Assembly: GCF_001949145.1 (NCBI RefSeq) | Contig: NW_019091366.1 | Span: forward strand, 2,996,815-3,027,626 | Reading direction: 5' to 3' | DNA from: Acanthaster planci | Taxonomy: Eukaryota | DNA: 30,812 nucleotides | Shown: positions 190 to 23,800 of the stretch, piece by piece | Numbering within the stretch: the first letter of the stretch is position 1 | Layout: each line of letters begins with the position of its first letter | Position numbers and translations under genes: made by a program | The notes under the pieces: model-generated | Databases searched by the model: none | The model's input: the letters and a program-made list of their open reading frames with translations, nothing else | What the model was told of the DNA's origin: nothing

Positions 190-3100
190 CTTGGATGAAA
201 TAATGACAGAATTATGTAACAATGACAAAGAAACACAAAACCATGTCAAATGGGTGTTAAAGACGGATGGGAAAAGTTAAAAACCAATCTCATTTCTTGG
301 AAAAGCTAAATACAATCCAATGAGTCAGTTTGGAAAGGTTATAACTTAGATCACCATGTTTACAAAACTAAAAATACTATATACAGCAGCAGATTTGATA
401 CTGTTTCACAACAGAAGAAGTGTGTCTTAACACGTAACATCACAGGGTGAAGTAGAAAGAGGCTAACCTGGATGAAGGAAGAAACTAGTATGACCTTTAC
501 GGAGTTCTTCACATCCAAGCTGAGAATGCCCATCTTCATCCACCGGATTACAAACGATGCAATACTGACCCTTCTCGAGGACTGTCTTTTTAACAGATTT
601 CACTGCTTGCTACAAGGATATAAAGTAAACTCTCTTTAAGGTAACAGAAAACCTGAACGTTTCTTTCTTTACAGACAGCATAAAGAATGGACACCACAAA
701 TATGACAATGCAAAGACACTTCTAAACAAAAGCTCAACAACGTGTTTCACAAATTAATCCTAATGGAAATGTACTCAGGGCAACTGTTTGGCTCAGCAAT
801 GACCAAACTAAATCTAATTAAAAATGCCTAGTCTTTACAGATTTTCATAAATGACAAGTTTTCTGTCACTAGACCAATAATTTTGGGTAACTAAAAAACT
901 GTCGAATCAACAAAACAATACTTACATTTTTATCTAATGTCTGGAACATGTTACCAAAATAAATTTAAGATTTCATCCGAGTAATTAAAGAAGCTCTTTT
1001 GACTCTCTGGACAATAACAAAATCATTTTACAGACTGGTTGCCTGTTACCTCGCCTATAGAGCTGCTTAAGCACAAAATTTGCTTAAGTGCAAAAAAACC
1101 TTACTTGATAAATCAGGTAACTAGCCGAAATTCCATGTGATGTATATTGTTTTGGGATTGTGTTTAGCTGTTTTTTTGGTTGGTGACCTCTGTTTATCAA
1201 GCAAAGTTTTTTCACGCTTAAGCAAATTTTGTGCTCAAGCAGCTCTATGAAATTGGCCCCAGTTACCTCGCCTATCCAGTTACCTCGCCTATTTCAGGGA
1301 TGTACATTTCAGTATCATCAGCTGTCACCATCCACTCCTCTCCAGCCTGGCGCTGCCTCCCTAAGGCATCTTGACAATTGTGCTCAGCAATAAGATGTAG
1401 AGCAACATCTTGCTTGAGGATGTAAGCAGATACCAGCTCAACCACCTAAAAGGATTGAATGGAAGCAACCAAGAATTCTGGAAACAAGTCCCTGAGGCTA
1501 CCTTCGACAAGGTGCACTACTCCTGAGGCTACCCACGACAAGGTGCACAGCTGTGACATAACGTTTGGGTGATATTCGCTTGCATAAACTAATAAGGCAA
1601 TATTTAAGAAAAGGTATATTCTGGTTCCATCACTTAAATGTCAGATTAGATTTGCCCTTTGGCAAAGTACAATTTTTAATATCCTCTCCTATGTAAACAG
1701 ATCTTTTTTTCACGTACTCAATGCTCACCTCTTCATAAACTCCAGGGAGATAAGCTCCTGCTTTCCTGACCAACCATTCCTCACCACTCACACGAGTGCT
1801 GAGTACAGAAAAGACAAGTCAAACTCATGGTTTGAAATATTCATCAACCAGACAGTGCTGATTTCTCCACTATCAATACATACTCTGTGAGGTTGCATCT
1901 GGAAGTAATTTCTTCATACAATTCAGGTATTTCCTCAGATCAGATTTGCTGGGTTCTACTTGTTGGGAAATACATATGTTGCAAGAGTAAATCTGATGTA
2001 CAGGTGTGTATACATTATTTCAATACTACAAGTACAATGAGTAATGATACAATCAACAGTAACATACTCGTAATATGCAAATATTGGGTAAACACCACTC
2101 ATATACCAGGAAGTTAAATTTTATGCCACATCCAAATGTTGGGACAAATCCAATAGTTATTCCTTACATTCCTTTATCAGTAAATCCTTGGGTTGCTCTG
2201 AGATGAAGTGCTTGACCTTGACCAATGACTGCTGCATTAACCCAACCAACAATCTCCTAAAAAGACGACAAAATGTAGAAAACAACCTGCACATCAATTA
2301 AACGAGGGGAGGTATTATTTCACACAAGTTGTCCTATCAAGTTGCCATTAAATTGTTAACAGAAATTATATATGTGTCAATGCAACAATGTTAACCATGG
2401 GCAATGTCTAAAAACTTTTCTTCATACAACAACTGATCCTTACAGCTTCAGCGGTGGGTTTATAGGTCAAAGGTCCTTCCAGTTGCCACAGATCACCTGC
2501 TTGTCTCTGTACCCCATCAACCTCATGATCAAGGACAGCTTTTAGCTGGATGGCTTGATTGACTTTCACAACAGGCAAAGGATGCATGGCCTTGCGATAG
2601 CCTAAAATAAAGCATATATTAAGTCTCATACTCTCCCAAAGATGAAAACGTGAGTGAGCTGTTGACAGTTGAAGGCGCTTTTATTGTATTTATCAGTGTT
2701 TAGAAATAGTGGCATGCATGTTAGTACAATGTCATATGAGAGCTTGCTTCCACATTGGTTCCTAAACTAAAGCATTTGTAGTGAAGAGAGCAATGAACAC
2801 AGAGGAACTACTGTAGTCTATTTTTTCTATGATTGTTGGGTCACACATGGACCTTCAAAACTCATTATGTGTGACTCTCAGTATTACATGTAGTTACATC
2901 TGTAATTAAACCAAGTTCATCCCAATCAAATGTGACAATGACCATGTATTTAGGCATACCTTCAAATCAAGACAAAACCGAATGTGATCAGTGGAGAAAA
3001 CTGTTTAATTGACAGGTAAAGTTACATTTTTGGGTGGAGAGGAATTCAGAGTTGTTGGGCACTGATGTTCACTCATTCATTCATTATCAGCCTTATGGTG

Positions 3101-5744: not shown

Positions 5745-6600
5745 TTAATACATCATGTCTACGCTGACTGGGAAGTCCGAAGTCCCGCACCCTCCTCCAA
5801 ATAGCGGAACTAAGCAGGAATGTGCAGGCCTGTAAGTTGTAAGGCTTGAGTACGTGTTATGCTGGTTACTCACCACGTCTAAAATGTGCACAAAATCCAC
5901 AGGTCCAATGTTTACAACTCCTGCCATTTCTATTGCTCTATCTGCAGAATGCACTCAGCGTCGCCGCGAAGATAAGGAAAGAAGAGTTTGTTCTAAAATC
6001 TTTCCGAGCCGAGTTTCGGGAGGAACGTTACAAGGGAGTTCACCATGGCAGTGACGTACATGTAAATGTGGTAAATGACTAGACTTACTTAGCTAGCTCC
6101 TAACTTCGACCCTTGACCGATGAAACCACTAGTGAACTTGGTTGGGCATATGACATTAATGGTCAAGGAGATTTTATTATTCTGACTAACTAATCAGTAA
6201 TCACAGTCTTAGGTGAAAAGAACGTTCTAGCAATTATGTGATAAATTCAGCACCTTTTTCACGGGCAGCATGACATTTGACATGGCGTCCCTATCAAGCT
6301 TCCCTCTCTGTGTAATGGTTTGATCCCGACCCTCGATGACACATACCGCGGGTACGGCGTGTGTGTGCAGTGTACTTGCCAAAGGGGTGCAGTGCAGGGT
6401 AGTGTCCCAATTCGAGGAAAATTCTCCTCCAGGCGTAGGCGCACATTAAGTACCCCCCCCAGATTCTTTCGAAAGAAGGGTTTGTTTGAGCCAAGAAATG
6501 GTGGGATTGTGTCAGTCTGGCTCGGGATCATCTCTGTAAATTCAGGGGCACTCATCTGGGAGAAAAGCAGACAAAAATGTGATTGAAAATTTGTCAGAAG
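5745..6600. promoter_or_regulatory. GC- and CpG-enriched island that stands out from the AT-rich surroundings. Possible promoter/5'UTR region, plausibly for MVP whose 5' end is not resolved.
   Basis: Local CG dinucleotide density (cgccgcgaag, ccgagccgagtttcggg, ccgcgggtacggcg) contrasts with the rest of the window. Overlapping ORFs on both strands show no recognisable protein similarity. A strong donor ACGTG|gtgagt is present on the minus strand near 5872. Confidence 0.3.
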
Positions 6601-6990: not shown

Positions 6991-7817
6991 CTACGGAATG
7001 TAATGGGGTGGATAGGAGAGAATATTTTCCAAAATTCAGAAACTTATACAGGTACATTTATATCAATATTTTATTGCAACAAATGGTGTGAGGTACACCA
7101 AACACACAGGTGTAACACTTCAATAAATCTAATTATCCAATCGGGTTGGAAAAAATGCCATTCTCAACTTTTGATCTCGTAAAAGTACTTTAAATGTATC
7201 TTAAATAAATAAAAGCCACCTCACTGTATAAAAGTTATACAACATATTTTTTATCCTTTGTGCTTACAGTATGCAGTGGATGATAACTAAATTCACTGTC
7301 AAAGACATAAGAGAGTTGTTCTCACGATACATTTTTCAAAGGAATAAGAGGACCTTAAATATTCTGCTGCAAATCTAAGATAAACACCAGGTGCTTTAAT
7401 ACTGATTACATGTAGTAGGAGTAGAGTGATGCAAGTGGCTTTGTTAGGAGAGTAGCCAATCAATAACTTTGGGAAAAATTCTCTAAGTAGTCCAATACCA
7501 AAATGAACAATGATAGAAAAAGCAAAAATTCATTTCAATTTAAAAGTCATAAAGATAATTCCAAACAATGAAAACGCTGTTCTCTGAATGACTCTTTATG
7601 GGGTGCTACAAAATTTCATATTAAAGAGTAGGGTGCAAGTTCAATTATGTATGATTTTAGTAACAGGTTCAAAACTGTGAATATTTCATACAAAAAATCT
7701 TCCACAGCAACCTTCAGAAAATTAATCATAAGTACAACTCTTTGAGATATCAAACGATTAAGAGCCAAGTAAGATAGTCATGGGTATTATCAACTGTTAT
7801 TGACAAAACTGATTTTG

Positions 7818-7827
7818 TTATGTTATC
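7818..7827 (-). CDS. IDH3B: IDH3 terminal micro-exon (..RIT*), followed by 3'UTR toward lower coordinates
   Basis: Acceptor caactgcag. AG+G ATA ACA TAA reads in phase. Tentative, because the coding part is very short. Confidence 0.4.
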
Positions 7828-10800
7828 CTGCAGTTGATGAAACCATCTACTGATGCTTGTTTACCTGAGATTATTTACAACTGCACTTGTAAACTCACTG
7901 GTTGTGGCATATCCACCCATGTCTTGTGTGCGTACCTTCAGTCAAGAAAAGACACAAAAGAAAAATAAGCATCTGCATGCAAATAAAACATAAAAATATA
8001 CTGCTTTTATGAAAGCAAAGTACTTGATATTAAAAAAATCAAAATTGGGAAAAATTCTTAGGGGTATCAAGGCAAAGAAATGAATGATGAAGGTAACTGC
8101 TCTAGCTTCTTTGAAATTTAAGGATTGGTACTGAAATTCATATCACAGTCAGGTGAGTACGAATTTGAAATTTAGTGTAAATTGCCCCAGAAATGAAGAT
8201 AATTTATAGACGTCAGAAGGTATTTCCATTCGCAATTGTCACTGAGCAATCTAAGTCTTGACTGAACTCACCTTGCCTGCACTGACAACTGACTCCACTG
8301 CTCTTTGAATGAGCTTGGCATACGAATCCATGCTGTAATTCAATAAAAAAGGGAAAGAGTTACAAAAGATAGTTTGTGGTTTATTGTTAAAATGGGTACA
8401 GGTGTTTGATATCTACATCGTTTATGTGTCTTGACCATGATGCCTCTATGTAAGGGGTCAGTAATAAACTAGATCTTAACGTGTCTCCATCGCCTATAAA
8501 CCATACAATTACACAATGCAACATCTAAGATTCTTAAAAGAAAACACTCATATAATGTAGCCATCAATTTCCTGTTTTTATTTCTACAGTTGAAAGAAGA
8601 TTTTGAAGTGTTTGTTGAGCCAAACTGTTTTTTCACTTTTGGGCATCCTTTGAAGCCATACTGATAAATGACTGATGAAAGAGTAAAATTCTACGGGCCA
8701 ACAGGATGAACGAGTAGACTCTACCAAGAGCCTCAGAAGATTAAAATGTCATTAATGATTTGGACAATACACTTACTGAAGATGTTTGAGCATGTTGGCA
8801 GCACAGAGAAACATAGCTGTAGGATTAGCAATGTTACGCCCCACAGCTTGTGAGAAGGTATGTCTAGCACCCTGACCAATCAAATAAAGAATTCCCATCA
8901 TGACTTTAAACAACTTGCCCAATCGACATACACATCCAAAATTTGAATTAACACTGACATGAAACAAAAGAAACATTGTCATTATGATCAAAGGCATGAA
9001 AATATATGTTTAAAATAAATTGAACACCATGAGAGGCATCTGAGACAAATCTAAAGAGCAATACACTTTCAGTGAAAGTTTTTATCACACAAAACGTAAA
9101 TTCTAGCAAATGTCTTCTGCTTGGTAAACTTTTGACTTCATTCTATTTTGTTTACATTGATATAATTTCCCATCAACTTACAGGCTCAAATATTGCAAAT
9201 TCCGTGGAGTAACTTTCTCCAGGAACCACCCCTGCTCCACCAACCAGCCCAGCCGCTAAGTTATCAACAATGTTGCCATAGAGGTTAGGGGTGACCAGCA
9301 CATCAAACTGATGAGGATTGGAAGCCAACTGCATGCAACAATTGTCAACAATCATAGACTCGAACTGGATCTTAGGGTACAAAGTTGAGATCTGGCGACA
9401 GCTTTCAAGAAAGAGACCATCCCCAAGTTTCCTAGAAAAGAAAACAGAATTTAATTGATATTGCAGGAATAGAAGTGACAACAGGGTAACCTGTGCAATG
9501 GATATTTAAGCATAACAAATAACTGGCTCGATCATAACATTTGTGTTTCACAAATATTTGTACCCGAAGGATAATAAAGCACTGTATGGTATCATCAATC
9601 TTAAACATTAGCCAATTAATTTTCTGATTGATCCGAGTTGCCTAGACATCACGATTTTCAAGCAGCCTAAGAGGATGGGCTATCATTAAGTCTATGCCTC
9701 GTCGGCTGTCAAACCTGATGCAGCGAAGCAAAAATGATAAAATCTGTCATCCAAGCGTGAAGAGTACTCACATTATATTTGCCTTGTGTACTGCAGTAAC
9801 TTTCTGACGATCATTTCTTCTGGCGTAATCAAAAGCAAACTTTGCAATCCGCATTGAGTTGGCTCTTGTAATAATCTTCAGGCATTCTACAACACCAGGA
9901 ACACTCTGATAGAAAAAAGAATCCATACGCCAGTACAAATAAATAATATCCACTCTTTTCAAACTTACGAAAGTGATCTCCGAGTCTCAATACATAAGGC
10001 ATACAGTCACATGATCATTGCAAACATAGACAATGCAGGATTACCTCATGTTCCAATGCACTATACTCTCCTTCTGTCTGTTCACGTATTACAACAAAAT
10101 CCAGACCAGTGTGTCTTGTCTTAATGCCCGGCAGAGTACGACACCTAACAACATTGGCAAATAGGTCCAATTCTCGTCTGTCAGGGAAAAATATTTTAGT
10201 CAAGTCATAAGATGTGTTTAATACAGTTATTAACAGAAAAGTTCCAGAGACGGCAATCAGTTGGTGCTTAATTAGCAAACAAATACACACTTTATGTGAT
10301 CAAACATCCTGAGCTTGCTACGAGCTCTTAGAAGAAACAACACATCCACAATCTAAATTCCTACATTTTCTATGGTTAATAATGGTTTGTGAAGACTCTG
10401 TACATACATTAAGCCATGGAATTTGGCCCTCGTTTTACCTAGCAGTTCTAAGTGCAAGTTTCAAATAGGAAAGGTACATGTACTCCCTCTGAGTGTTCAT
10501 AATTGTACATGTTCATTGGTGTTGTGATGTTTGACTTCAAGAGTTACCAAACCTGATTTTCATGTTGAGTGTCTGAAGCTCACCACCTCCTCCCCAGGGT
10601 GTGTGAATGATTCCCTTGAGGGCAACCTGGTTCCGCTTAAAGGAATCAATGACATCACCTACAGTGGCACTCTTCCCTACTTGTACCTCACTGCAGAAAG
10701 AAAAAATACATAATGACATCAACCAGTTCTAAGCAATATTGAAAATAAAACCTGCAATGTATAAATCATGAGTAATTTCCATTTTCAGTGCTATAAGTTG

Positions 10801-11671
10801 AAACGTAGTGTTATAACACCACATATTATGCAAGATTTTGTTCAGCTTAAAGGAGAAAAGATCTTGTATTAATTCAAAACTGCACAGCAGTGATCAAAAA
10901 ATTACATAAATGTTGGCATACCAGTACCTGACAAATAATTCCTCAAAGTCTACTGGCACTTCTGCACTTTTGAACACTTCCCTGACAGATAACATAAGTT
11001 CAGGACCAACGCCATCCCCTGGGATTAGTGTGACAGTCCTCTTGGTGTCTGGCTCAGCTACTGGAGCCTGGGAACATCACAAACATATTTAAGTAAAAAA
11101 GCAATTAAGGGTCTAGGAAGCAAGGAGAAAAAGAAGCAGGCTAAGAGTGAAATAGGAGAAGCAACAGTTCTTTTATATGAAAAACAAGCAATAGAGGGGC
11201 TGCATGGAGCACCCTCACAGAGGACAGGTCTTGGTTCCTGTGTAATATGCTTGAAAAGACCCTATAGTCCTTTCTTGTCATATAAATCTAAATAACAAAC
11301 ATGTCCTTTGTGAGGGCACTCCACACAGCCCCTCTAAGGCTCTGGACTATAGGCCTAAAAGAAGCCAAAAGACATAAATAAATGTTTAATTCTCTTGTAG
11401 ACCACGTGGCCACTGGATGATCTTCATAATTTTAATATTGTTTTGTTTAGACAGATTTCCATACTAACCACTTTTATTAACACTTTGAATTAGGTTTAAC
11501 TGGAAAAAGTAACCAAAACTCACTAAAGACAATCTGAATTCTAACACTTGTATTTTCTAACTTACCACAGGTTTTTGACAAGCTTGGCTTATTGCAAGTG
11601 TTCTGACTAGTAAGTGGACTGATGGTAACTGTGAAAAGTAATGTTTGAATAGTAAATGTTAATAACAGCAT
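7818..11671 (-). CDS. IDH3B: NAD+-dependent isocitrate dehydrogenase (IDH3) subunit, most similar to the beta/gamma regulatory subunits. Ten exons.
   Basis: Spliced product: ...[36 protein letters not shown] / [20 protein letters not shown] / [44 protein letters not shown] / [45 protein letters not shown] / [74 protein letters not shown] / [20 protein letters not shown] / [46 protein letters not shown]. Colinear with human IDH3B ([53 protein letters not shown]). Confidence 0.9.
7865..7935 (-). CDS. IDH3B: IDH3 exon [23 protein letters not shown]
   Basis: Acceptor gactgaag and donor CAG followed by gtaaac. Matches IDH3B/G KVRTRDMGGY.TT.DF...VI. Confidence 0.85.
8272..8332 (-). CDS. IDH3B: IDH3 exon [21 protein letters not shown]
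   Basis: Acceptor ttgaattacag and donor AAG followed by gtgagt. Confidence 0.8.
8777..8871 (-). CDS. IDH3B: IDH3 exon [31 protein letters not shown]
   Basis: Acceptor tttgattggtcag and donor CA followed by gtaagt. Holds the conserved IANPTA motif. Confidence 0.85.
9182..9431 (-). CDS. IDH3B: IDH3 exon [14 protein letters not shown]...[35 protein letters not shown]
   Basis: Acceptor ttttcttttctag and donor CCT followed by gtaagt. Confidence 0.9.
9772..9905 (-). CDS. IDH3B: IDH3 exon [44 protein letters not shown]
   Basis: Acceptor ttttctatcag and donor AT followed by gtgagt. Confidence 0.9.
10045..10177 (-). CDS. IDH3B: IDH3 exon [44 protein letters not shown]
   Basis: Acceptor ccctgacag and donor GAG followed by gtaatc. 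Confidence 0.9.
10553..10690 (-). CDS. IDH3B: IDH3 exon [46 protein letters not shown]
   Basis: Acceptor tttctgcag and donor ATCAG followed by gtttgg. Matches IDH3B RNRVALKGNIET... Confidence 0.8.
10928..11060 (-). CDS. IDH3B: IDH3 exon (V)[43 protein letters not shown]
   Basis: Holds the PGDGVGPE nucleotide/substrate-binding N-terminal motif. Donor GTCAG followed by gtactg. Confidence 0.85.
11566..11671 (-). CDS. IDH3B: IDH3 putative first coding exon ([35 protein letters not shown]) acting as a presequence
   Basis: A true ATG at 11671-11669 on the minus strand. The donor TGTG|gtaagt is in phase with the acceptor ggctccag|TA of the next exon. The sequence is hydroxyl-rich with few basic residues, so assignment as a mitochondrial targeting peptide is tentative. 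Confidence 0.4.
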
Positions 11672-11800: not shown

Positions 11801-12038
11801 TCCCTACCTGATTCCGCGGGTTTTACCCAGAATATTCCTTTGGGGTTTTCCTCCTACCTCTAAAACTGTAACTGCTTCTCACTGTCTCCTCTCTACAGCC
11901 TCAGGTTTTTATTCAGGCTTGCGAGCTACAGTGCCTGGGGTGCTTTTGAGGAATTCTTGGTGTCATTACCAGTGGGAGTGGGACCACGATGCCTGCCACG
12001 ATAGTTACTACCACTGTACCAGTACCACTGCCATACCC

Positions 12039-12120
12039 CCAGAACTGTGGGGTCCAACGTACGTCCGCTCCACTTCTATGTTCATGGGAGCGCAGCGGGC
12101 GTCGGACCCCACAGTTCTGG
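12039..12120. repeat. Perfect 19-nt inverted repeat ccccagaactgtggggtcc / ggaccccacagttctgggg around a ~40 bp GC-rich spacer. The ccccagaactgggg motif recurs at 13305-13320.
   Basis: The reverse-complement identity is directly visible. Additional palindromes ccagtggcagtgccactgccatgcc lie in 11990-12170. Confidence 0.6.
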
Positions 12121-12708
12121 GGGGTAGGCCTACCAGTGGCAGTGCCACTGCCATGCCAGGGGGATGGGTAGAGTCAGTCTGCCACATAGCATTATGCGTT
12201 ATCACAATCAAAAGTAACAGGAAAGATAGACATACAAATACAAAAAGGAGGAAGTTAATTACTCACTTTTAAACCAGTCCTCGTTAATATTTTGCAAAAG
12301 AGGCTAGAATTCGCCATCAGTTTGATCCGTATTTCTTCACGGTCTAGTCTGAGTGACACAGTAGGCAATACACCAATGCAAGGTTCAGAACAGACTGGAC
12401 CCTCTAGATTCAACGTTTTAAATGTACATGTACTCCCAGATCCTTGAAATGATCGAAGAGGGAAACCAGACCGATGTTAACATGGCCCCTTTCACCATGC
12501 GCGCAATTTGTCGCCAGCTTTGCTGGAGTAGTATTTCAAGATCTCAGCTGATAATCTTACCGTTCATCTCTCTCAATAAAAGTGAGAATCACTTCCGACG
12601 GATGGCGAAGGTATTTAAACAATTAGATACTTGATCCATGGAGGAAGGAAAAAACATTGAGGACAAGCCTAGGTTCCCCATACAGCGGCGGACCCAGGAT
12701 TTTTCAAA

Positions 12709-16884: not shown

Positions 16885-19434
16885 CTGTTAAATAGAAAAA
16901 GAGAAATTTAGAGTTACCGTTTTGAATAAATGATAATGGTTGAAAGATTTCAAACAATTTAAATTCTCAGTTGAGTAACACCACTACCACATTTAAAGAA
17001 GGCACTATGAAATTCTAGAATCCTGCTCACGTGGTAGGTATCCTGTGTACTTGGGCACCATTCCAATTTGCTTGTAAAGACGTCTCTGCATCAAGACATC
17101 TCTGTCTTCTTTGGTAAGCTGGATGGATGCCTTTGCTTGGTCATCTGGAAGCATGGTCCTGAAAAAAGAAAAATGATGCAAAAAGAATGAAGACAAAAAA
17201 TCTCAGGCAGTTACTTCACAATCTGTTCAATTATAAAGAGGGCTAAAGGTTGGAACAAGAGAGGGCTAAAGGTTGGAACAAGAGGGCTAAAGGTTGGAAC
17301 AAGAGCACTTTATAGCCTTAACATCTAAACAAAAAATCAGTTCATACTATAGTGATGAAAACAAGGGTACATGTACTAGCCTAGCTAGACCATGACATGG
17401 TAAAGTTATGTATAAACTCTAAACACACAAACTCTAGCTTACTTGGGAGTGTAGGCTTGTCCAATTCTCTCTGCATGCCTTTCTGTCTCATCATAGAAGG
17501 TATTGAAAGATTTATCACAGATGGTATGATAGCGAGCACCTAGGCCCAGTTCAGACACACCTTGTCTTGGAATGAAGCCCTTGTACCCTGGCATAGGGGC
17601 TTCTCTAGATGCACGTTTGTCTTCTGAGAAAGGGAAGGAATTCACCATGTTATATTGAGCGTACTTGGAAATTCGAAAAAGGAATCTGATGAATATTTTA
17701 TGAATTACATATTGCTTTTAGTGGTATTTAAAAAGCAATGCCAAGTCATTACCACAGTTACAGAATTTAAAAAGTAAAGTACAAAAACCGAAAAAAAAAT
17801 CGAGAAAACTCTTTCTCGTATTACAATCATGGAGGTATCAAACAAAGCTTTTCTAAGATTAAATTACAACTCAATCCACTCGGAGAACTGGTAAGGTTAA
17901 ATTCTGTTAACATTTTGAACAATCACCAACCTAGAAGTATTTTGGAAGTCGGATGTCTGTCCCTGTACTGGTTTAATCGGTGGATAACTGTCCCTTCATC
18001 TACCATTGGCCGTAGTGGTTTGATCTGCGTTTGTGCTTTTCGTAATGTGTGCACCTTGGTATCATGTTCCTTGGTGTTCCTCATGAAGTCATCAATGCAG
18101 ACATCACAATCTTCCTTATAGGTGTTGCCAAACTTGAATGGCATTCTGGGAATGTAGCCTGTAATGCGAAGCATTTAAGGTGAAAAAGTACATGAATATG
18201 TACATAAGGGGGCTACATTCAAAAGTATTTTGAGATCGAGGTAAACAAAACGGATTTTGTTGTGGCTTATCAAGCTACATGTATACTGGAAAAGGGTTTT
18301 CAGAACAGGCCCAAAAAACTTGTAGCATTTGATAATTTTAATTTAATCAGGAAATTGATAAGGGAAGGGCTAGCGGTAAGAAACAAGTTCTTGACAATAT
18401 GAGTGTGTTTAAAGCTGGGGGAAATTCTTTTCCTTTAAGTAAATATATGAACTAAATTATCATCAATAAAGGAATATGAGAGAATTTTGGGGGGCGGGTG
18501 GGGTTAGAACTTCACCTGATATGAAAATAACAAAATACGTGTAAATAAATGTGCCTGATACCTGTGTATCCAGGAACCATTTTCTCTGTCAGCTTATTGT
18601 CTCCTGTTGATTTAGGAAGTTTAAGATCTCGTCTTGTACCACTCCCTTCCACATCCTCTGGACCACTTAGACCTGTTCCAACAAAGGTTGTCTTTGGATC
18701 AAAATAGTTCTGCGGAGAGGCTGTATATGCTGGATGCCTGGTTCTCCATGACTATAAATTATAAATTAAACAGAAAAGGGTCTCAATATAGTATAATGTT
18801 GCATAAGCCTACTTGAAAGAACGCGTTTGAAAACTGCATGCAGATAAAAGATTCTCTTGGTTAGCTTAATACACATGAAAGTTAGGACACCAGCTTTTGA
18901 CTTGGTGCGTAATGGGTCAGGTCACTCACATCAGTAACTCTTTCACATTTCAGGTCAGTCCAACAAGTGGCGGGGCAAAAACTAAAGTCAAATACGACTG
19001 TAGACATAACTGAAGTTTCTGAATCATCCATACATTTTACATTCATAGACAAATGGTCACTTATTTTCAGTTTTTATCATACGTTCACACATACAGTCCT
19101 GAATTTTGACATGTGAACTATTATAATTAGTACATTACATGGATTGTATGAGTCCAACCGCTGGTTAGGTTACAGTGGCTAGACGTTCTAAAATTAAACA
19201 TTTATATATTTCCACCATGCAGAAAATTCCTTGGGATGCACAGCAATTCTCTGGACAAATTCTATACTTAATGCACAAAAAAATGAATGTTATTCCTGGC
19301 TGAAACTTTTAAGTTTCATACTGCATATAAGAAATACATGTACATGCAAATGTGTTACCTCAGATAATTTATTTGTAGCATTGCCATATGTATCACCAAC
19401 ATGATACTTGTATTGCTCTATGTAACCTCGGTAC
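16769..19434 (-). CDS. FAM166/CIMIP2-like (DUF2475) ciliary microtubule inner protein. Six exons identified. The initiator exon was not found and is probably at 19440-19960.
   Basis: Product: ..YRGYIEQYKYHVGDTYGNATNKLSE / SWRTRHPAYTASPQNYFDPK...KMVPGYTG / YIPRMPFKFGNTY... / EDKRASREAPMPGYKGFIPRQ... / KTMLPDD...IGMVPKYTGYLP / QIRFQFGHTYGDTTRSLPVCFHEQPTYGQHLSVVQQSV*. The iterated [VI]PGYxG[FY]xP and [FY]xFGxTYG motifs are the FAM166 signature. All junction phases are consistent. Confidence 0.7.
17031..17158 (-). CDS. FAM166-like exon (KTMLPDDQAKASIQLTKEDRDVLMQRRLYKQIGMVPKYTGYLP)
   Basis: Acceptor ttttcttttttcag and donor CCAC followed by gtgagc. Confidence 0.65.
17229..17300. repeat. Tandem repeat, about three copies of a ~23-nt unit (gagggctaaaggttggaacaaga), in a FAM166-like intron
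   Basis: Direct repetition is visible. Confidence 0.7.
17443..17623 (-). CDS. FAM166-like exon (EDKRASREAPMPGYKGFIPRQGVSELGLGARYHTICDKSFNTFYDETERHAERIGQAYTPK)
   Basis: Acceptor ccctttctcag and donor CCAA followed by gtaagc. Confidence 0.65.
17931..18158 (-). CDS. FAM166-like exon (GYIPRMPFKFGNTYKEDCDVCIDDFMRNTKEHDTKVHTLRKAQTQIKPLRPMVDEGTVIHRLNQYRDRHPTSKILL)
   Basis: Acceptor cgcattacag. The weak donor CTAG|gttggt is supported by phase continuity. Confidence 0.6.
18562..18751 (-). CDS. FAM166-like exon (SWRTRHPAYTASPQNYFDPKTTFVGTGLSGPEDVEGSGTRRDLKLPKSTGDNKLTEKMVPGYT)
   Basis: Acceptor aatttatag and donor ACAG followed by gtatca. Confidence 0.65.
19359..19434 (-). CDS. FAM166-like exon (YRGYIEQYKYHVGDTYGNATNKLSE)
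   Basis: Acceptor ttatttcag and donor GAG followed by gtaaca. Confidence 0.6.
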
Positions 19435-20872: not shown

Positions 20873-23800
20873 GTGAATGAAGTTGAAAATATTCAGTAAA
20901 TTTTACTTAAAAAGTAGACTGCTCTTATCAATGATATCACCATATAAGAATAGTAATGATGGTGGGGATGGTGGTAATATGCTAAATGGTGATATGGAGC
21001 TGATGCTTGATTTGTACGTGTAGAGTACGTTGTAATGATGGAGGGTGATGAGACTGATAATGATAGAGAATTTTGATAACGGGGATGATTACAATGATGA
21101 TGACCGTGGTTGTATTGAGGATGGTAATTATGAGAAATACAATTTATTTCACAGTACTTAATAGTGCAGTTGAATAAAATGGACAAATTGAGAAATAATG
21201 AAGCCAAGTAAAGAATAAAATTGAGTAAGCCTCAATAGGTTTTAAGATGAATGTTGTTGACATAGGAACAAAAGTTATGTTCTTGAGGACATGCTAATTA
21301 TTGATCTGTGCAATTCTGTTTTCCTCAGAGGCCCAGCGAGAAGTTTGCTGGGACATTGACAGACGTGGTTATTCTGGAGAGACCTTACTCCATGTTTGCT
21401 TCATGAGTCCCCACAATAAAGATGTTAACTTTGAGATTGCCAAACAACTCATAAAAGCATGGCCAAAGATGATAAATGACTTCATCCTAGGAACTGAAAA
21501 CTATGGTAAGTATGATACGTTTGCATCATGCAATACCAAATTCTACCTCAAGGAGGTCTTTTCATCTCTATAATCTCAGAACCTTGACTCTACTGGGCTA
21601 GCTGTCTGTAGTTGGCTTTTAATCCAATTATGGTGATCAACTGTATTTACATGTAGGTGCTTTGTTAGCTGCACTTTCTCAGTTATCGGTGAAATATTTT
21701 GATAAATGCGTATAAAAGAAAGCAACTCCATTATTATTCCCCAACTCCTCCCCCTAACAAAAAGTCAGGGTCAGACCTATGACTACTGCACTTACAAAAA
21801 GAGTTTTGTTTTCAGGTGATGAACCAGTTACAAGAATTTATGTTTTTTACACTTTCTTGAACATTTCAGGTGAAACATGTTTACATAAAGCTATTGTAAA
21901 TGAGAACATCAGTATGATCAAGTTCCTGATTGAGAATGGAGCTGACTTGAATGTTCATTGTTATGGAAGGTTCTTCAGGCCAGATGACCAGAAGGCTTGG
22001 TGTGAGGACTCACTTAACCATGAACACTTCATTTTGTACAAAAAGACAAACTATGAAGGGTGAGTATACAAATATTAATAAATATCAAGCAAGATGGGAG
22101 AAATTTGTGTTGGATGGCATTGTTGAGGTTTTTGAGTGCATCTTTGAAAAGGACAGTTGTGACATTTTCAGGCAATTCAAGAGTTTGCATTTTACTTTAA
22201 AGCTTGTCAGAGCTGTTTAAACTGCAGGGATACAAATAAAAGAGAATGTAGCAATGGCAAAACCTTTTGGATGCAGTAAAGAATATTTAATTGTAAGAGT
22301 GGTCATGAGGCAATCCATTGAGTTCAGTAAGACTAACAGGTAAGAAATGACATATTTTGAAATTATTGTGACTATTCCTAAGACTTACATAGTGTAATTT
22401 TTCCTAGACTCACCTACTGGGGAGAAACACCACTGACGTTTGCAGCTTGTCTGGATTTAGATCACATTTTCCGTTCTTTGTGGGTGAAGGGGTGTGATAT
22501 CAATGCTCAAGACACTAATGGGAACACTGTACTTCATATGATGGTTTTACATGATAAGAAGGTAAGTCTTTTTGACAACAGCAACTAATTCTATTTTAGT
22601 GTCACATCTTAATGTTTTGACTTGGTTCCAAACTTCAGCCTTCTGTATTATCCTTGTTCAAATTTTACTTTTATGCTGACATGCATGTCAATGACCAAAG
22701 GATTTTCTGTTTTATCATGTTCTTTGATAGTCTTCAAGGATATTTGTCAGGGGATTAAAAAACATATGATTGCATTCCCAGAGAGATATATATATTTGGT
22801 TATTATGTGAACTTTTTTTTTGCTCAGGATATGTTCACTTTGGCATATGAGTTGGGTGGTGACTGCACCATCAAGAACAATCAAGGGTACACTCCTTTGT
22901 CTCTGGCTGCCAAGCTACATAGGATAGACCTCTTTGAGCATATTTTGTTCTTAGAACGTCAACTCTCATGGAAGTATGGCGATGTTACTTGTGCATCATA
23001 TGCTCTGGATGGCTTAGACAGTATTAACTATGATGGTACCATCAATAATAAATCATCACTGCATCTCATTGTAAACCAAGTAAGTTGTATTTAGTGTTGA
23101 TTCAGAAGAACAAAAGGGCATGCAAGGTTTGAACATTGCCCACCGGCATGTAAAATGTGCATCGGCTGTGTGTTTGCTCAAGAAGAATAGAACATGGAGA
23201 TGGCAACCTGTACTGCAGGTTTTACAGAGGGAGGCATACAGTAGTTGACAATCTCTACCACAATTTTTTTTATATTGATTTTACTGGAATTATATCTTAA
23301 GAGTATAGAATTTCTAAAAGTAGTTTGTCATTCTGACTTGTCTCCTAGATTACTTCAACTGAGGAATTCATGTGTTACACTGTATTTATTAAAAAGATAA
23401 AATTCAATTTTGACCTGAATTCCCTCTAATACCTTGTCACTTTTTGCAGACAAGCAAGGAACATCTTCAGATGTTGAAAGGTGTCATCTACAAGCTGTTG
23501 GATGAGAAATGGAAGACATTTGGTCGTTTCAATTTCTTTGCTCGCCTAGCATTCTTTCTTCTGTACCTAGCTGTACTCACAACTGCATTCTATCTCAGGC
23601 CGGGAAAGGTAAACATTAAAAACAACCTCCATCCAAACAATGTATTTCAAATTTGAAATGTTTGCAAGTTGTTTAAAAGGAATTCACATTATTTTCTCTA
23701 CGTATTTTAAGTTTTCAATAATTTGTTGACATGTTCTACTTTTCTCAATGTCCCTTTCATCAATTTTCTGTCCTGCAGGACCCTAAAGCATTCACAGTAC

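Follow-up and report, generated by a model that had tools for sequence, protein, structure and literature searches.

A sea-star MITE family with CWG target-site duplications and its shortened copy beside a repeated splice donor of MVP in Acanthaster planci

Transposons of the NuwaI group, which belongs to the PHIS superfamily (PIF/Harbinger-ISL2EU-Spy), are defined by a target-site duplication (TSD) of sequence CWG and by terminal inverted repeats (TIRs) of 12-61 bp that usually start with GGG; their hosts are animals (Han et al. 2015, Mob DNA 6:12, PMC4482050). They are elements of the cut-and-paste type with MITEs (miniature inverted-repeat transposable elements) among their derivatives, and they have been little studied; the defining survey (PMC4482050) lists fish, beetle, crustacean, mollusc and anthozoan hosts, without report of an echinoderm. 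Here we describe a MITE in an intron of the major vault protein gene (MVP) of the sea star Acanthaster planci, in a stretch of DNA of 30.8 kb (the window; all coordinates for A. planci are positions in the whole stretch), and the high-copy sea-star family that it defines, whose members are ~191 bp long, with CWG as the TSD and a TIR that starts GGCCCAATTTCATAGAGCTGCTTAAGCA. The A. planci copy has lost the outer part of one TIR and lies among three copies of the end of an MVP exon with its splice donor. It probably arrived by a canonical insertion, after which two rearrangements of its junctions made the extra donor copies. The element belongs to an already known kind of transposon, and the understanding of transposons or of splicing is unchanged by it; its interest is modest, that of a curiosity of transposon repair and not of a new kind of element.

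Two other kinds of MITE come close to the family in structure. Tourist-like MITEs of PIF/Harbinger share with it the short, hairpin-forming, non-autonomous form, a TIR start of GGCC type, a TSD of 3 bp and a frequent location in introns or untranslated regions (UTRs), but their TSD is TWA (TAA or TTA), where the starfish family has CWG. Stowaway (Tc1/mariner) MITEs are alike in size and hairpin shape, and also in the TA that appears at the edges of the inverted repeat in the window; the true ends of the starfish family, however, are 11 nt farther out, with CWG beside them.

A sea-star MITE family with CWG target-site duplications

The initial annotation of the window had described, beside an MVP splice donor, a ~190-bp element with 30-bp TIRs and had proposed that it is a MITE. 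The 30-nt TIR is present as described, at 1059-1088 and 1217-1246, with 1 mismatch (0 expected by chance), and the inverted repeat goes on beyond it, its arms (1057-1112 and 1193-1248) being 56 nt long and 89% complementary. Within the window the hairpin has no second similar copy and is thus present once, but that it is a copy of a mobile element is borne out by its occurrence elsewhere, at Asterias loci and on 90 metagenome contigs derived from sea stars. The Asterias loci are part of a set of MVP regions from Patiria miniata (L001), Asterias rubens (L002) and Asterias amurensis (L003) that was obtained through CMD-IDH3B-MVP synteny, the last of them by way of a lengthened MVP query. Compared with these three loci by blastn, the element finds the same TIR in those of Asterias: in A. 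rubens at 7645-7672, 9136-9163 and ~8912, besides ends at 20986, 30319 and 37261, and in A. amurensis as a ~200-bp copy at 35398-35596, with solo ends at 7521 and 14297. The 16-nt terminus occurs five times in the A. rubens locus and twice in that of A. amurensis, for an expectation of 0.06 per locus. Upstream of IDH3B in A. rubens, the 1.5-kb stretch at 7645-9163 is bounded by family TIRs with CTG on both sides and has the third TIR (~8912) inside; it holds no obvious long open reading frame (ORF) and is either a larger non-autonomous relative of the MITE or a set of nested copies.

A first pattern made from the TIR (GCTGCTTRAGCACAAAATTTGCTT) gave 0 matches in metagenome and viral contigs. 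The refined pattern of the outer TIR matches 90 metagenome contigs (L004-L093), nearly all of them from assembly JACSEG01, and gives 0 matches in viral and prokaryotic genome contigs. The matching contigs are of sea-star origin, since further repeats on them recur at 70-85% identity in the Asterias loci and since long animal ORFs are found on them. They contain 56 full copies of the MITE, with a modal length of 191 bp, and in their alignment (A1) the A. planci copy is homologous to the other members of the family in its interior as well as in its TIRs. The long ORFs in the MITE-bearing loci look like host genes, as judged from their first residues. In several JACSEG01 contigs (L010, L040, L084 and others) such ORFs are long and uninterrupted, and their first residues are animal-like (actin-related protein, phosphoserine aminotransferase); these contigs probably represent transcripts of sea stars, and if so, the MITE would be frequently transcribed within UTRs.

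The A. planci element itself, at ~201 bp, is non-coding, with ORFs of 33-43 aa only, and a 54-aa translation of it, compared with 1.84 billion representative proteins, gave a single and spurious match to a repetitive protein. Matches in Rfam (MIR841, MIR1435, MIR8562) were set aside, as they are to generic plant models of long-hairpin miRNAs, lie far under the gathering scores and reflect hairpin shape, not homology. A literature search on MITEs of Acanthaster returned nothing specific.

The other copies show where the family ends. Its inverted repeat runs 11 nt beyond the 56-nt arms seen in the window (GGCCCAATTTC-ATAGAGCTGC...), and the consensus TIR, of ~43 nt, begins with GGCCC, where the A. 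planci copy begins with GGGCC. The three bases outside the TIR, compared over 99 ends, are CTG in 43, CAG in 37 and something else in 19 (CWG in 80/99); the middle base is evenly T or A, as expected if CWG is the target and not a fixed part of the element. Position -5 is A in 61% of ends, and among the 34 copies that have CWG on each side, both flanks are identical in 25. The TSD of the family is thus 3 bp, CWG. An assignment to PIF/Harbinger in the strict sense, with its TWA TSD, was rejected on these flanks, which are CWG, TTA occurring at 1 of the 99 ends. The same copies decide on a Stowaway-type (Tc1/mariner) MITE, which would be a 186-bp element at 1060-1245 with a TA duplication and palindromic ATAG...CTAT ends. 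The window has the TA that such an element needs at both ends of the inverted repeat (1058-1059 and 1246-1247), but the TIR of the family continues for 11 nt, to GGCCCAATTTC, before CWG is reached; in the family copies the TA dinucleotides are internal bases of the TIR, so that the TA-TSD model is ruled out and a Stowaway element retains next to no probability.

With its 3-bp CWG TSD, its TIR within the range of 12-61 bp and starting with GG(G/C), and its animal host, the family matches the NuwaI group, as far as TSD and TIR features can place it. It differs from the described members in being non-autonomous, no transposase or Myb/SANT ORF having been found in it (an autonomous partner would encode a DDE transposase of the Nuwa clade together with a Myb/SANT protein), in its echinoderm host, and in the CTG that stands opposite CAG in about a quarter of its copies; the A. 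planci copy differs further by its one shortened TIR and its long flank duplications. Mixed flanks of this kind are seen in 9 of the 34 full copies with CWG on both sides (for example L004 66-238, L008 860-1052, L018 720-911 and L023 974-1147), where simple mutation would be expected to produce ~1-2 (binomial P ~2e-5), and the A. planci copy belongs to this class. The excised element might carry overhangs derived from its donor site, so that the middle base may differ between the two flanks; if true, donor-derived CWG overhangs would amount to a piggyBac-like seamless mechanism, which is undescribed for the PHIS superfamily. Some copies occur as head-to-tail pairs with one CWG in common (...GAAATTGGGCC-CTG-GGCCCAATTTC...), as at L027 4078-4466 and also in L057, L022 and L062, which suggests that insertion beside an existing copy is favoured.

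The A. planci copy and the repeats at its ends

The MITE lies on the intron side of an MVP splice junction. MVP was located in the window by tblastn, with a human MVP query, and by frame translations, full-length MVPs being reached with a lengthened chimeric query; its exons in the window are identical to the NCBI A. planci protein 'major vault protein-like isoform X2' (P0241). The features of the junction are as follows, a slash marking a junction here and below.

1284..1445, minus strand: MVP coding exon (VVELVSAY...), from tblastn and translation, identical to P0241; its last 9 nt, ATAGGCGAG, are at 1292-1284
610..1283, minus strand: MVP intron containing the repeat/MITE block; 674 nt, of which 234 nt are Acanthaster-specific (1059-1292 or equivalent)
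467..609, minus strand: next MVP exon (...FFLHPG), from tblastn, translation and P0241
1276..1292, minus strand: repeat copy C, ATAGGCGAG/GTAACTGG, with the authentic 5' splice site; exon end 1284, intron GT 1283-1282
1259..1275, minus strand: repeat copy B, a perfect tandem of C; cryptic donor GT 1266-1265; its last 4 nt are the TSD CTG (1262-1260) and the first TIR base (1259)
1260..1262, minus strand: CTG, the 3-bp TSD at the complete end of the MITE, from family flank statistics and alignment A1
1057..1259, no strand assigned: MITE copy, ~201-203 bp, complete at 1259 and without the outer 11 nt of the TIR at 1057/1059
1193..1259, no strand assigned: complete TIR arm, in gene sense GGGCCAATTTCATAGAGCTGCTTGAGCACAAAATTTGCTTAAG...
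1057..1112, no strand assigned: shortened TIR arm, which starts at ATAGAGCTGC; the outer GGCCCAATTTC is gone
1042..1058, minus strand: repeat copy A, ATAGGCGAG/GTAACAGG; cryptic donor GT 1049-1048

The exon at 1445-1284 terminates in ...CCTGAAATAGGCGAG and is followed by the intron sequence GTAACTGG, giving the junction ATAGGCGAG/GTAAC. A 15-mer across this junction, agttacctcgcctat, had been reported from three places. It is exact in two of them, at 1261-1275 and 1278-1292 (not at 1263-1277 and 1280-1294, coordinates that are 2 nt off), but at 1044-1058 it reads tgttacctcgcctat, with one mismatch. The unit of repetition is 17 nt long: two units of CCAGTTACCTCGCCTAT follow each other in perfect tandem (1259-1275 and 1276-1292), and the third unit, CCTGTTACCTCGCCTAT at 1042-1058, has one mismatch to it, so that copies A and B are identical in 16/17 positions. 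A 14-mer core, GTTACCTCGCCTAT, is exact in all three (1045-1058, 1262-1275 and 1279-1292), for a chance expectation of 0.07 even with 2 mismatches allowed. The locus thus contains three copies of the 5' splice-site core GAG/GTAAC, in donor sites that are identical from -9 to +5; at position +6, copy A has A and the other two copies have T.

Written in gene sense, this region is GAA [ATAGGCGAGGTAACTGG] [ATAGGCGAGGTAA-CTG] [GGGCCAATTTCATAGAGC ... GCTCTAT] [AGGCGAGGTAA-CAG] GCAACC... The two ends of the MITE are unequal. At 1259 the match to the consensus TIR starts from nt 1 and covers 40/43 positions, whereas at the other end it starts only from nt 12 (31/32), and in alignment A1 the A. planci copy diverges from the family right after CTCTAT. 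The 10-nt 'spacer' GAAATTGGCC at 1249-1258, between the hairpin and copy B, is the outer part of the TIR. The repeats had been described as flanking an element at 1059-1247; the right-hand copy does not abut an element with these limits, but copy B does abut the end of the MITE once the outer 10-12 nt are counted as TIR. At the distal end, where ATGAAATTGGCCC-CAG-G is expected, ATAGGCGAGGTAA-CAG-G is found, a copy of the exon end and of the first intron bases; the expected and the found sequence have in common just an AT at one side and CWG at the other, and this AT, at 1057-1058, belongs both to the end of the MITE and to copy A. The tandem duplication of C and B takes in the TSD together with nt 1 of the TIR.

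The initial annotation had interpreted the 15-nt repeat as a TSD that happened to fall on a splice donor. This cannot be upheld: the TSD of the family is the 3-bp CWG, copy A abuts a TIR that lacks its outer 11 nt, and the third, tandem copy fits no TSD model. Among 165 family ends, the A. planci copy is alone in repeating its own flank both at the far end and, in tandem, upstream, all other long flank matches being MITE-next-to-MITE arrays, in which the flank is another copy's terminus, or three probable chance matches; the long repeat is therefore not the normal insertion product of the family. A long direct repeat beside a hairpin is thus not necessarily a TSD, and the true ends and the TSD become visible only after other copies have been aligned.

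Nearest to the interpretation as a TSD is a non-canonical insertion in one step, in which a shortened or extrachromosomal MITE would have been captured at a double-strand break with a stagger of ~17 nt, the fill-in of the overhangs producing a long 'TSD' that is not the work of a transposase. Such a capture would account for the 16/17 identity of copies A and B and for their positions, B abutting the complete end and A the shortened one once the true end of the TIR is recognised. It would, however, leave the third, tandem copy unexplained and make a coincidence of the perfect CTG, with A at -5, that the complete end has in common with the transposase-made insertions of the family; and the other family ends with flank repeats of 13-17 nt are the arrays and probable chance matches just mentioned. 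We regard it as unlikely.

Outgroup junctions and a probable history of the insertion

The orthologous junction reads ...CCTGAAATAGGAGAG/gtcagcatcgaacagttcttaaaa in Patiria (short form ATAGGAGAG/gtcagcatcgaac) and ...CCAGAAATAGGAGAG/gtaatacgcacagg in Asterias amurensis (short form ATAGGAGAG/gtaatacgcac), in both cases with a single donor and without the element; the comparison for Asterias was made on A. amurensis, the A. rubens locus stopping short of the orthologous exon. The orthologous intron measures 744 nt in Patiria and 425 nt in A. amurensis. Judged from these junctions, the 234-nt block is a gain in the Acanthaster lineage. The A. planci sequence that follows copy A (gtaacaggcaaccagtctgtaaaa) has the same length as the start of the Patiria intron and matches it in 15/24 positions, and for this reason GTAA-CAG-G is likely the ancestral target; the CAG at 1045-1043 would then probably be the original target, and the sequence from copy A downstream the probable ancestral start of the intron. 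The orthologous MVP intron of Patiria carries an unrelated 369-bp MITE of its own, ~40 nt in (L001 24257-24625); it is of PIF/Harbinger type, its TIR is GGCCAAAAAAAAAAAGTCTCCGGTTTCTGGTATG, and a perfect TAA duplication flanks it at each end.

With these junctions, the locus can also be compared to introner elements, MITE-like transposons whose insertion makes a new intron out of the element and splice sites that come from its TSD. It resembles them in that a transposon-linked duplication overlaps a splice site and in that bases of the used donor (+5 to +8) are derived from a TSD or duplication; it differs in that the MVP intron predates the element, which makes up ~200 of its 674 nt and gives neither splice site. 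An interpretation as an introner was rejected, as Patiria and Asterias have this intron in the same place but lack the element, so that the intron is older than the insertion.

The history that we consider probable, namely a canonical insertion followed by two rearrangements at its junctions, would start with the entry of the MITE into the CAG at +5 to +7 of the MVP intron, in the Acanthaster lineage. The canonical product would have read, in gene sense, ...ATAGGCGAG/GTAA-CWG-[GGGCCAATTTCATAGAGC...GCTCTATGAAATTGGCCC]-CAG-GCAACC. A break at the distal transposon end, plausibly caused by an abortive excision, would have led to the loss of the outer 11 nt of the TIR, and AGGCGAGGTAA, the exon end with the first intron bases, would have been put in place of the lost end. 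This could have happened by microhomology-mediated or templated end joining, in which the 3' end of the flank primes on the proximal CWG, copies ~13 nt of the exon end and rejoins the resected TIR at AT. Either as part of this event or independently of it, 17 nt at the proximal junction (ATAGGCGAGGTAA + CTG + G) would have been duplicated in tandem. Footprints of templated or microhomology-mediated end joining at transposon ends are those of polymerase-theta-type repair, and the A. planci junction is similar to them in its microhomologies of 2-3 nt, in the loss of terminal bases and in the insertion of a short copy of the nearby flank, whereas a tandem copy of 17 nt is untypical of such repair. 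Mis-priming on the CTG of the exon during synthesis-dependent strand annealing was considered for the tandem copy and rejected; it predicts CTG/AAATAGG, and CTGG/ATAGG is observed. The order of these events, like the mechanism of repair, is one that we infer.

Several points weigh against this history and the assignment that goes with it. One A. planci assembly is the source of both the tandem copy and the odd distal junction; no microhomology flanks the 17-nt tandem duplication, nor does the repair model specifically predict it; the ancestral CAG is deduced from a short, weak alignment of intron starts (15/24 with Patiria); the 30.8-kb window holds a single copy of the family; and the assignment to NuwaI is made on TSD and TIR, no transposase or autonomous element with these TIRs having been found.

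The first two of these points bear on the possibility of an assembly or haplotype artefact, in which the MITE allele and the empty allele (...ATAGGCGAGGTAACAGGCAACC...) of a heterozygote were strung together, or a 17-nt overlap of contigs was left unmerged; the true canonical allele would then read ...CTCTATGAAATTGGCCCCAGGCAACC, with a single donor. Copy A and the sequence downstream of it are exactly as the empty allele would read, and the tandem duplication, being perfect (17/17) and without microhomology, is like an unmerged overlap; palindromic MITEs are, moreover, trouble spots for short-read assemblers. The overlap at the distal junction, however, is just 2 nt (AT), too short for assemblers to join on, and the break falls within the TIR, whereas a graph would tangle at the edge of the inverted repeat; also, the region is without Ns or gaps, and natural-looking imperfect small tandem repeats are found close by, at 1491-1548. 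An artefact of either form has, in our estimate, a low probability.

The duplications could also have come before the MITE. Slippage would have triplicated the unit in tandem, a canonical insertion of the MITE would have followed, with the CWG in the middle copy as its target, and a later deletion of 17 nt (GAAATTGGCCC-CWG-G-AT, between two AT) would have removed the end of the TIR. Every 17-mer indeed holds a CWG target with A at -5, the deletion that is needed is bounded by AT microhomology and exactly 17 nt long, and the neighbouring intron has small tandem repeats. This order, however, takes four events in place of two or three, and Patiria and Asterias are single-copy; that B and C are perfectly identical while the TIR arms diverge by 11% suggests a young tandem copy, not one older than the insertion. 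We consider it very unlikely that the duplications came first.

Donor use and the surrounding locus

As the annotated protein P0241 reads across the junction as EIGE/QAVK (continuing QAVKSVKK), which requires the exon-proximal donor, the donor in use is that of copy C, with GT at 1283-1282. The donor of copy B, at 1266, is 17 nt downstream of the authentic one and adds 17 nt to the exon, causing a frameshift; the donor of copy A, at 1049, is 234 nt downstream and adds 234 nt. Both extensions read GTA ACT GGA TAG (VTG-stop), with an in-frame stop at the fourth codon. The downstream copies, which had been put forward as in-frame alternatives, can thus not serve as such, since the use of either yields a premature stop and that of copy B also shifts the frame. 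On these translations, only the exon-proximal donor leaves the frame open, and the two extra donors are predicted to be unproductive; the consequence for MVP is a row of three identical donor cores, two of which lead to premature stops. Transcripts from either decoy donor would be expected to be substrates of nonsense-mediated decay (NMD), and the bases from +5 to +8 of the functional donor would now derive from the TSD or the duplication.

A more far-reaching interpretation combines these points. The rearrangements would be real and record a germline abortive excision of a CWG-targeting (NuwaI-type) transposon that was repaired by templated end joining, the working MVP donor having been rebuilt by chance from TSD-derived bases; two decoys of equal strength would be present 17 and 234 nt downstream, and a measurable fraction of MVP pre-mRNA would be spliced unproductively and degraded by NMD. 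We offer this combination tentatively, as possible but well short of an even chance.

As RNA, the MITE region folds at -102 kcal/mol (z = -10.4). Over 1249-1300, read as RNA in gene sense, the orphan outer TIR GCC-A-AUUUC has its complement in the exon end GAAAU-A-GGC, and in the predicted fold the pairing of the two closes a small loop that holds donors C and B, beside the 56-bp hairpin; it may or may not influence the choice of splice site. The exon end also resembles the terminus of the TIR that is absent (TGAAATAGGC compared with TGAAATTGGC).

The MVP gene and its neighbours in the window are arranged as follows.

1 to ~4150, minus strand: MVP, with a probable alternative first exon near 5832-5918
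~7860-11100, minus strand: IDH3B (NAD-isocitrate dehydrogenase beta)
~13.7-15.6 kb, plus strand: CMD/AhpD-like gene
from ~21.3 kb, plus strand: ankyrin/TRPV-like channel gene

The part of MVP that lies in the window, from ~4150 to 1, is the 5' half of the gene, as seen from tblastn and frame translations. IDH3B of the window has 100% identity to the NCBI A. planci protein, 93% to that of Patiria miniata and 87% to that of Asterias rubens. The gene order CMD-IDH3B-MVP is also found in Patiria, and the adjacency of IDH3B and MVP also in Asterias rubens.

Three smaller repeats were noted in the window: an imperfect 31-nt tandem repeat at 1491-1548, within the preceding intron of MVP; a separate small hairpin at 12036-12123, with 24-nt arms that are 96% complementary; and a 22-nt minisatellite at 17236-17305. 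Outside the animals, cyanobacterial metagenome-assembled genomes hold MVP-like proteins, labelled 'colicin uptake protein', with 48% identity to starfish MVP.

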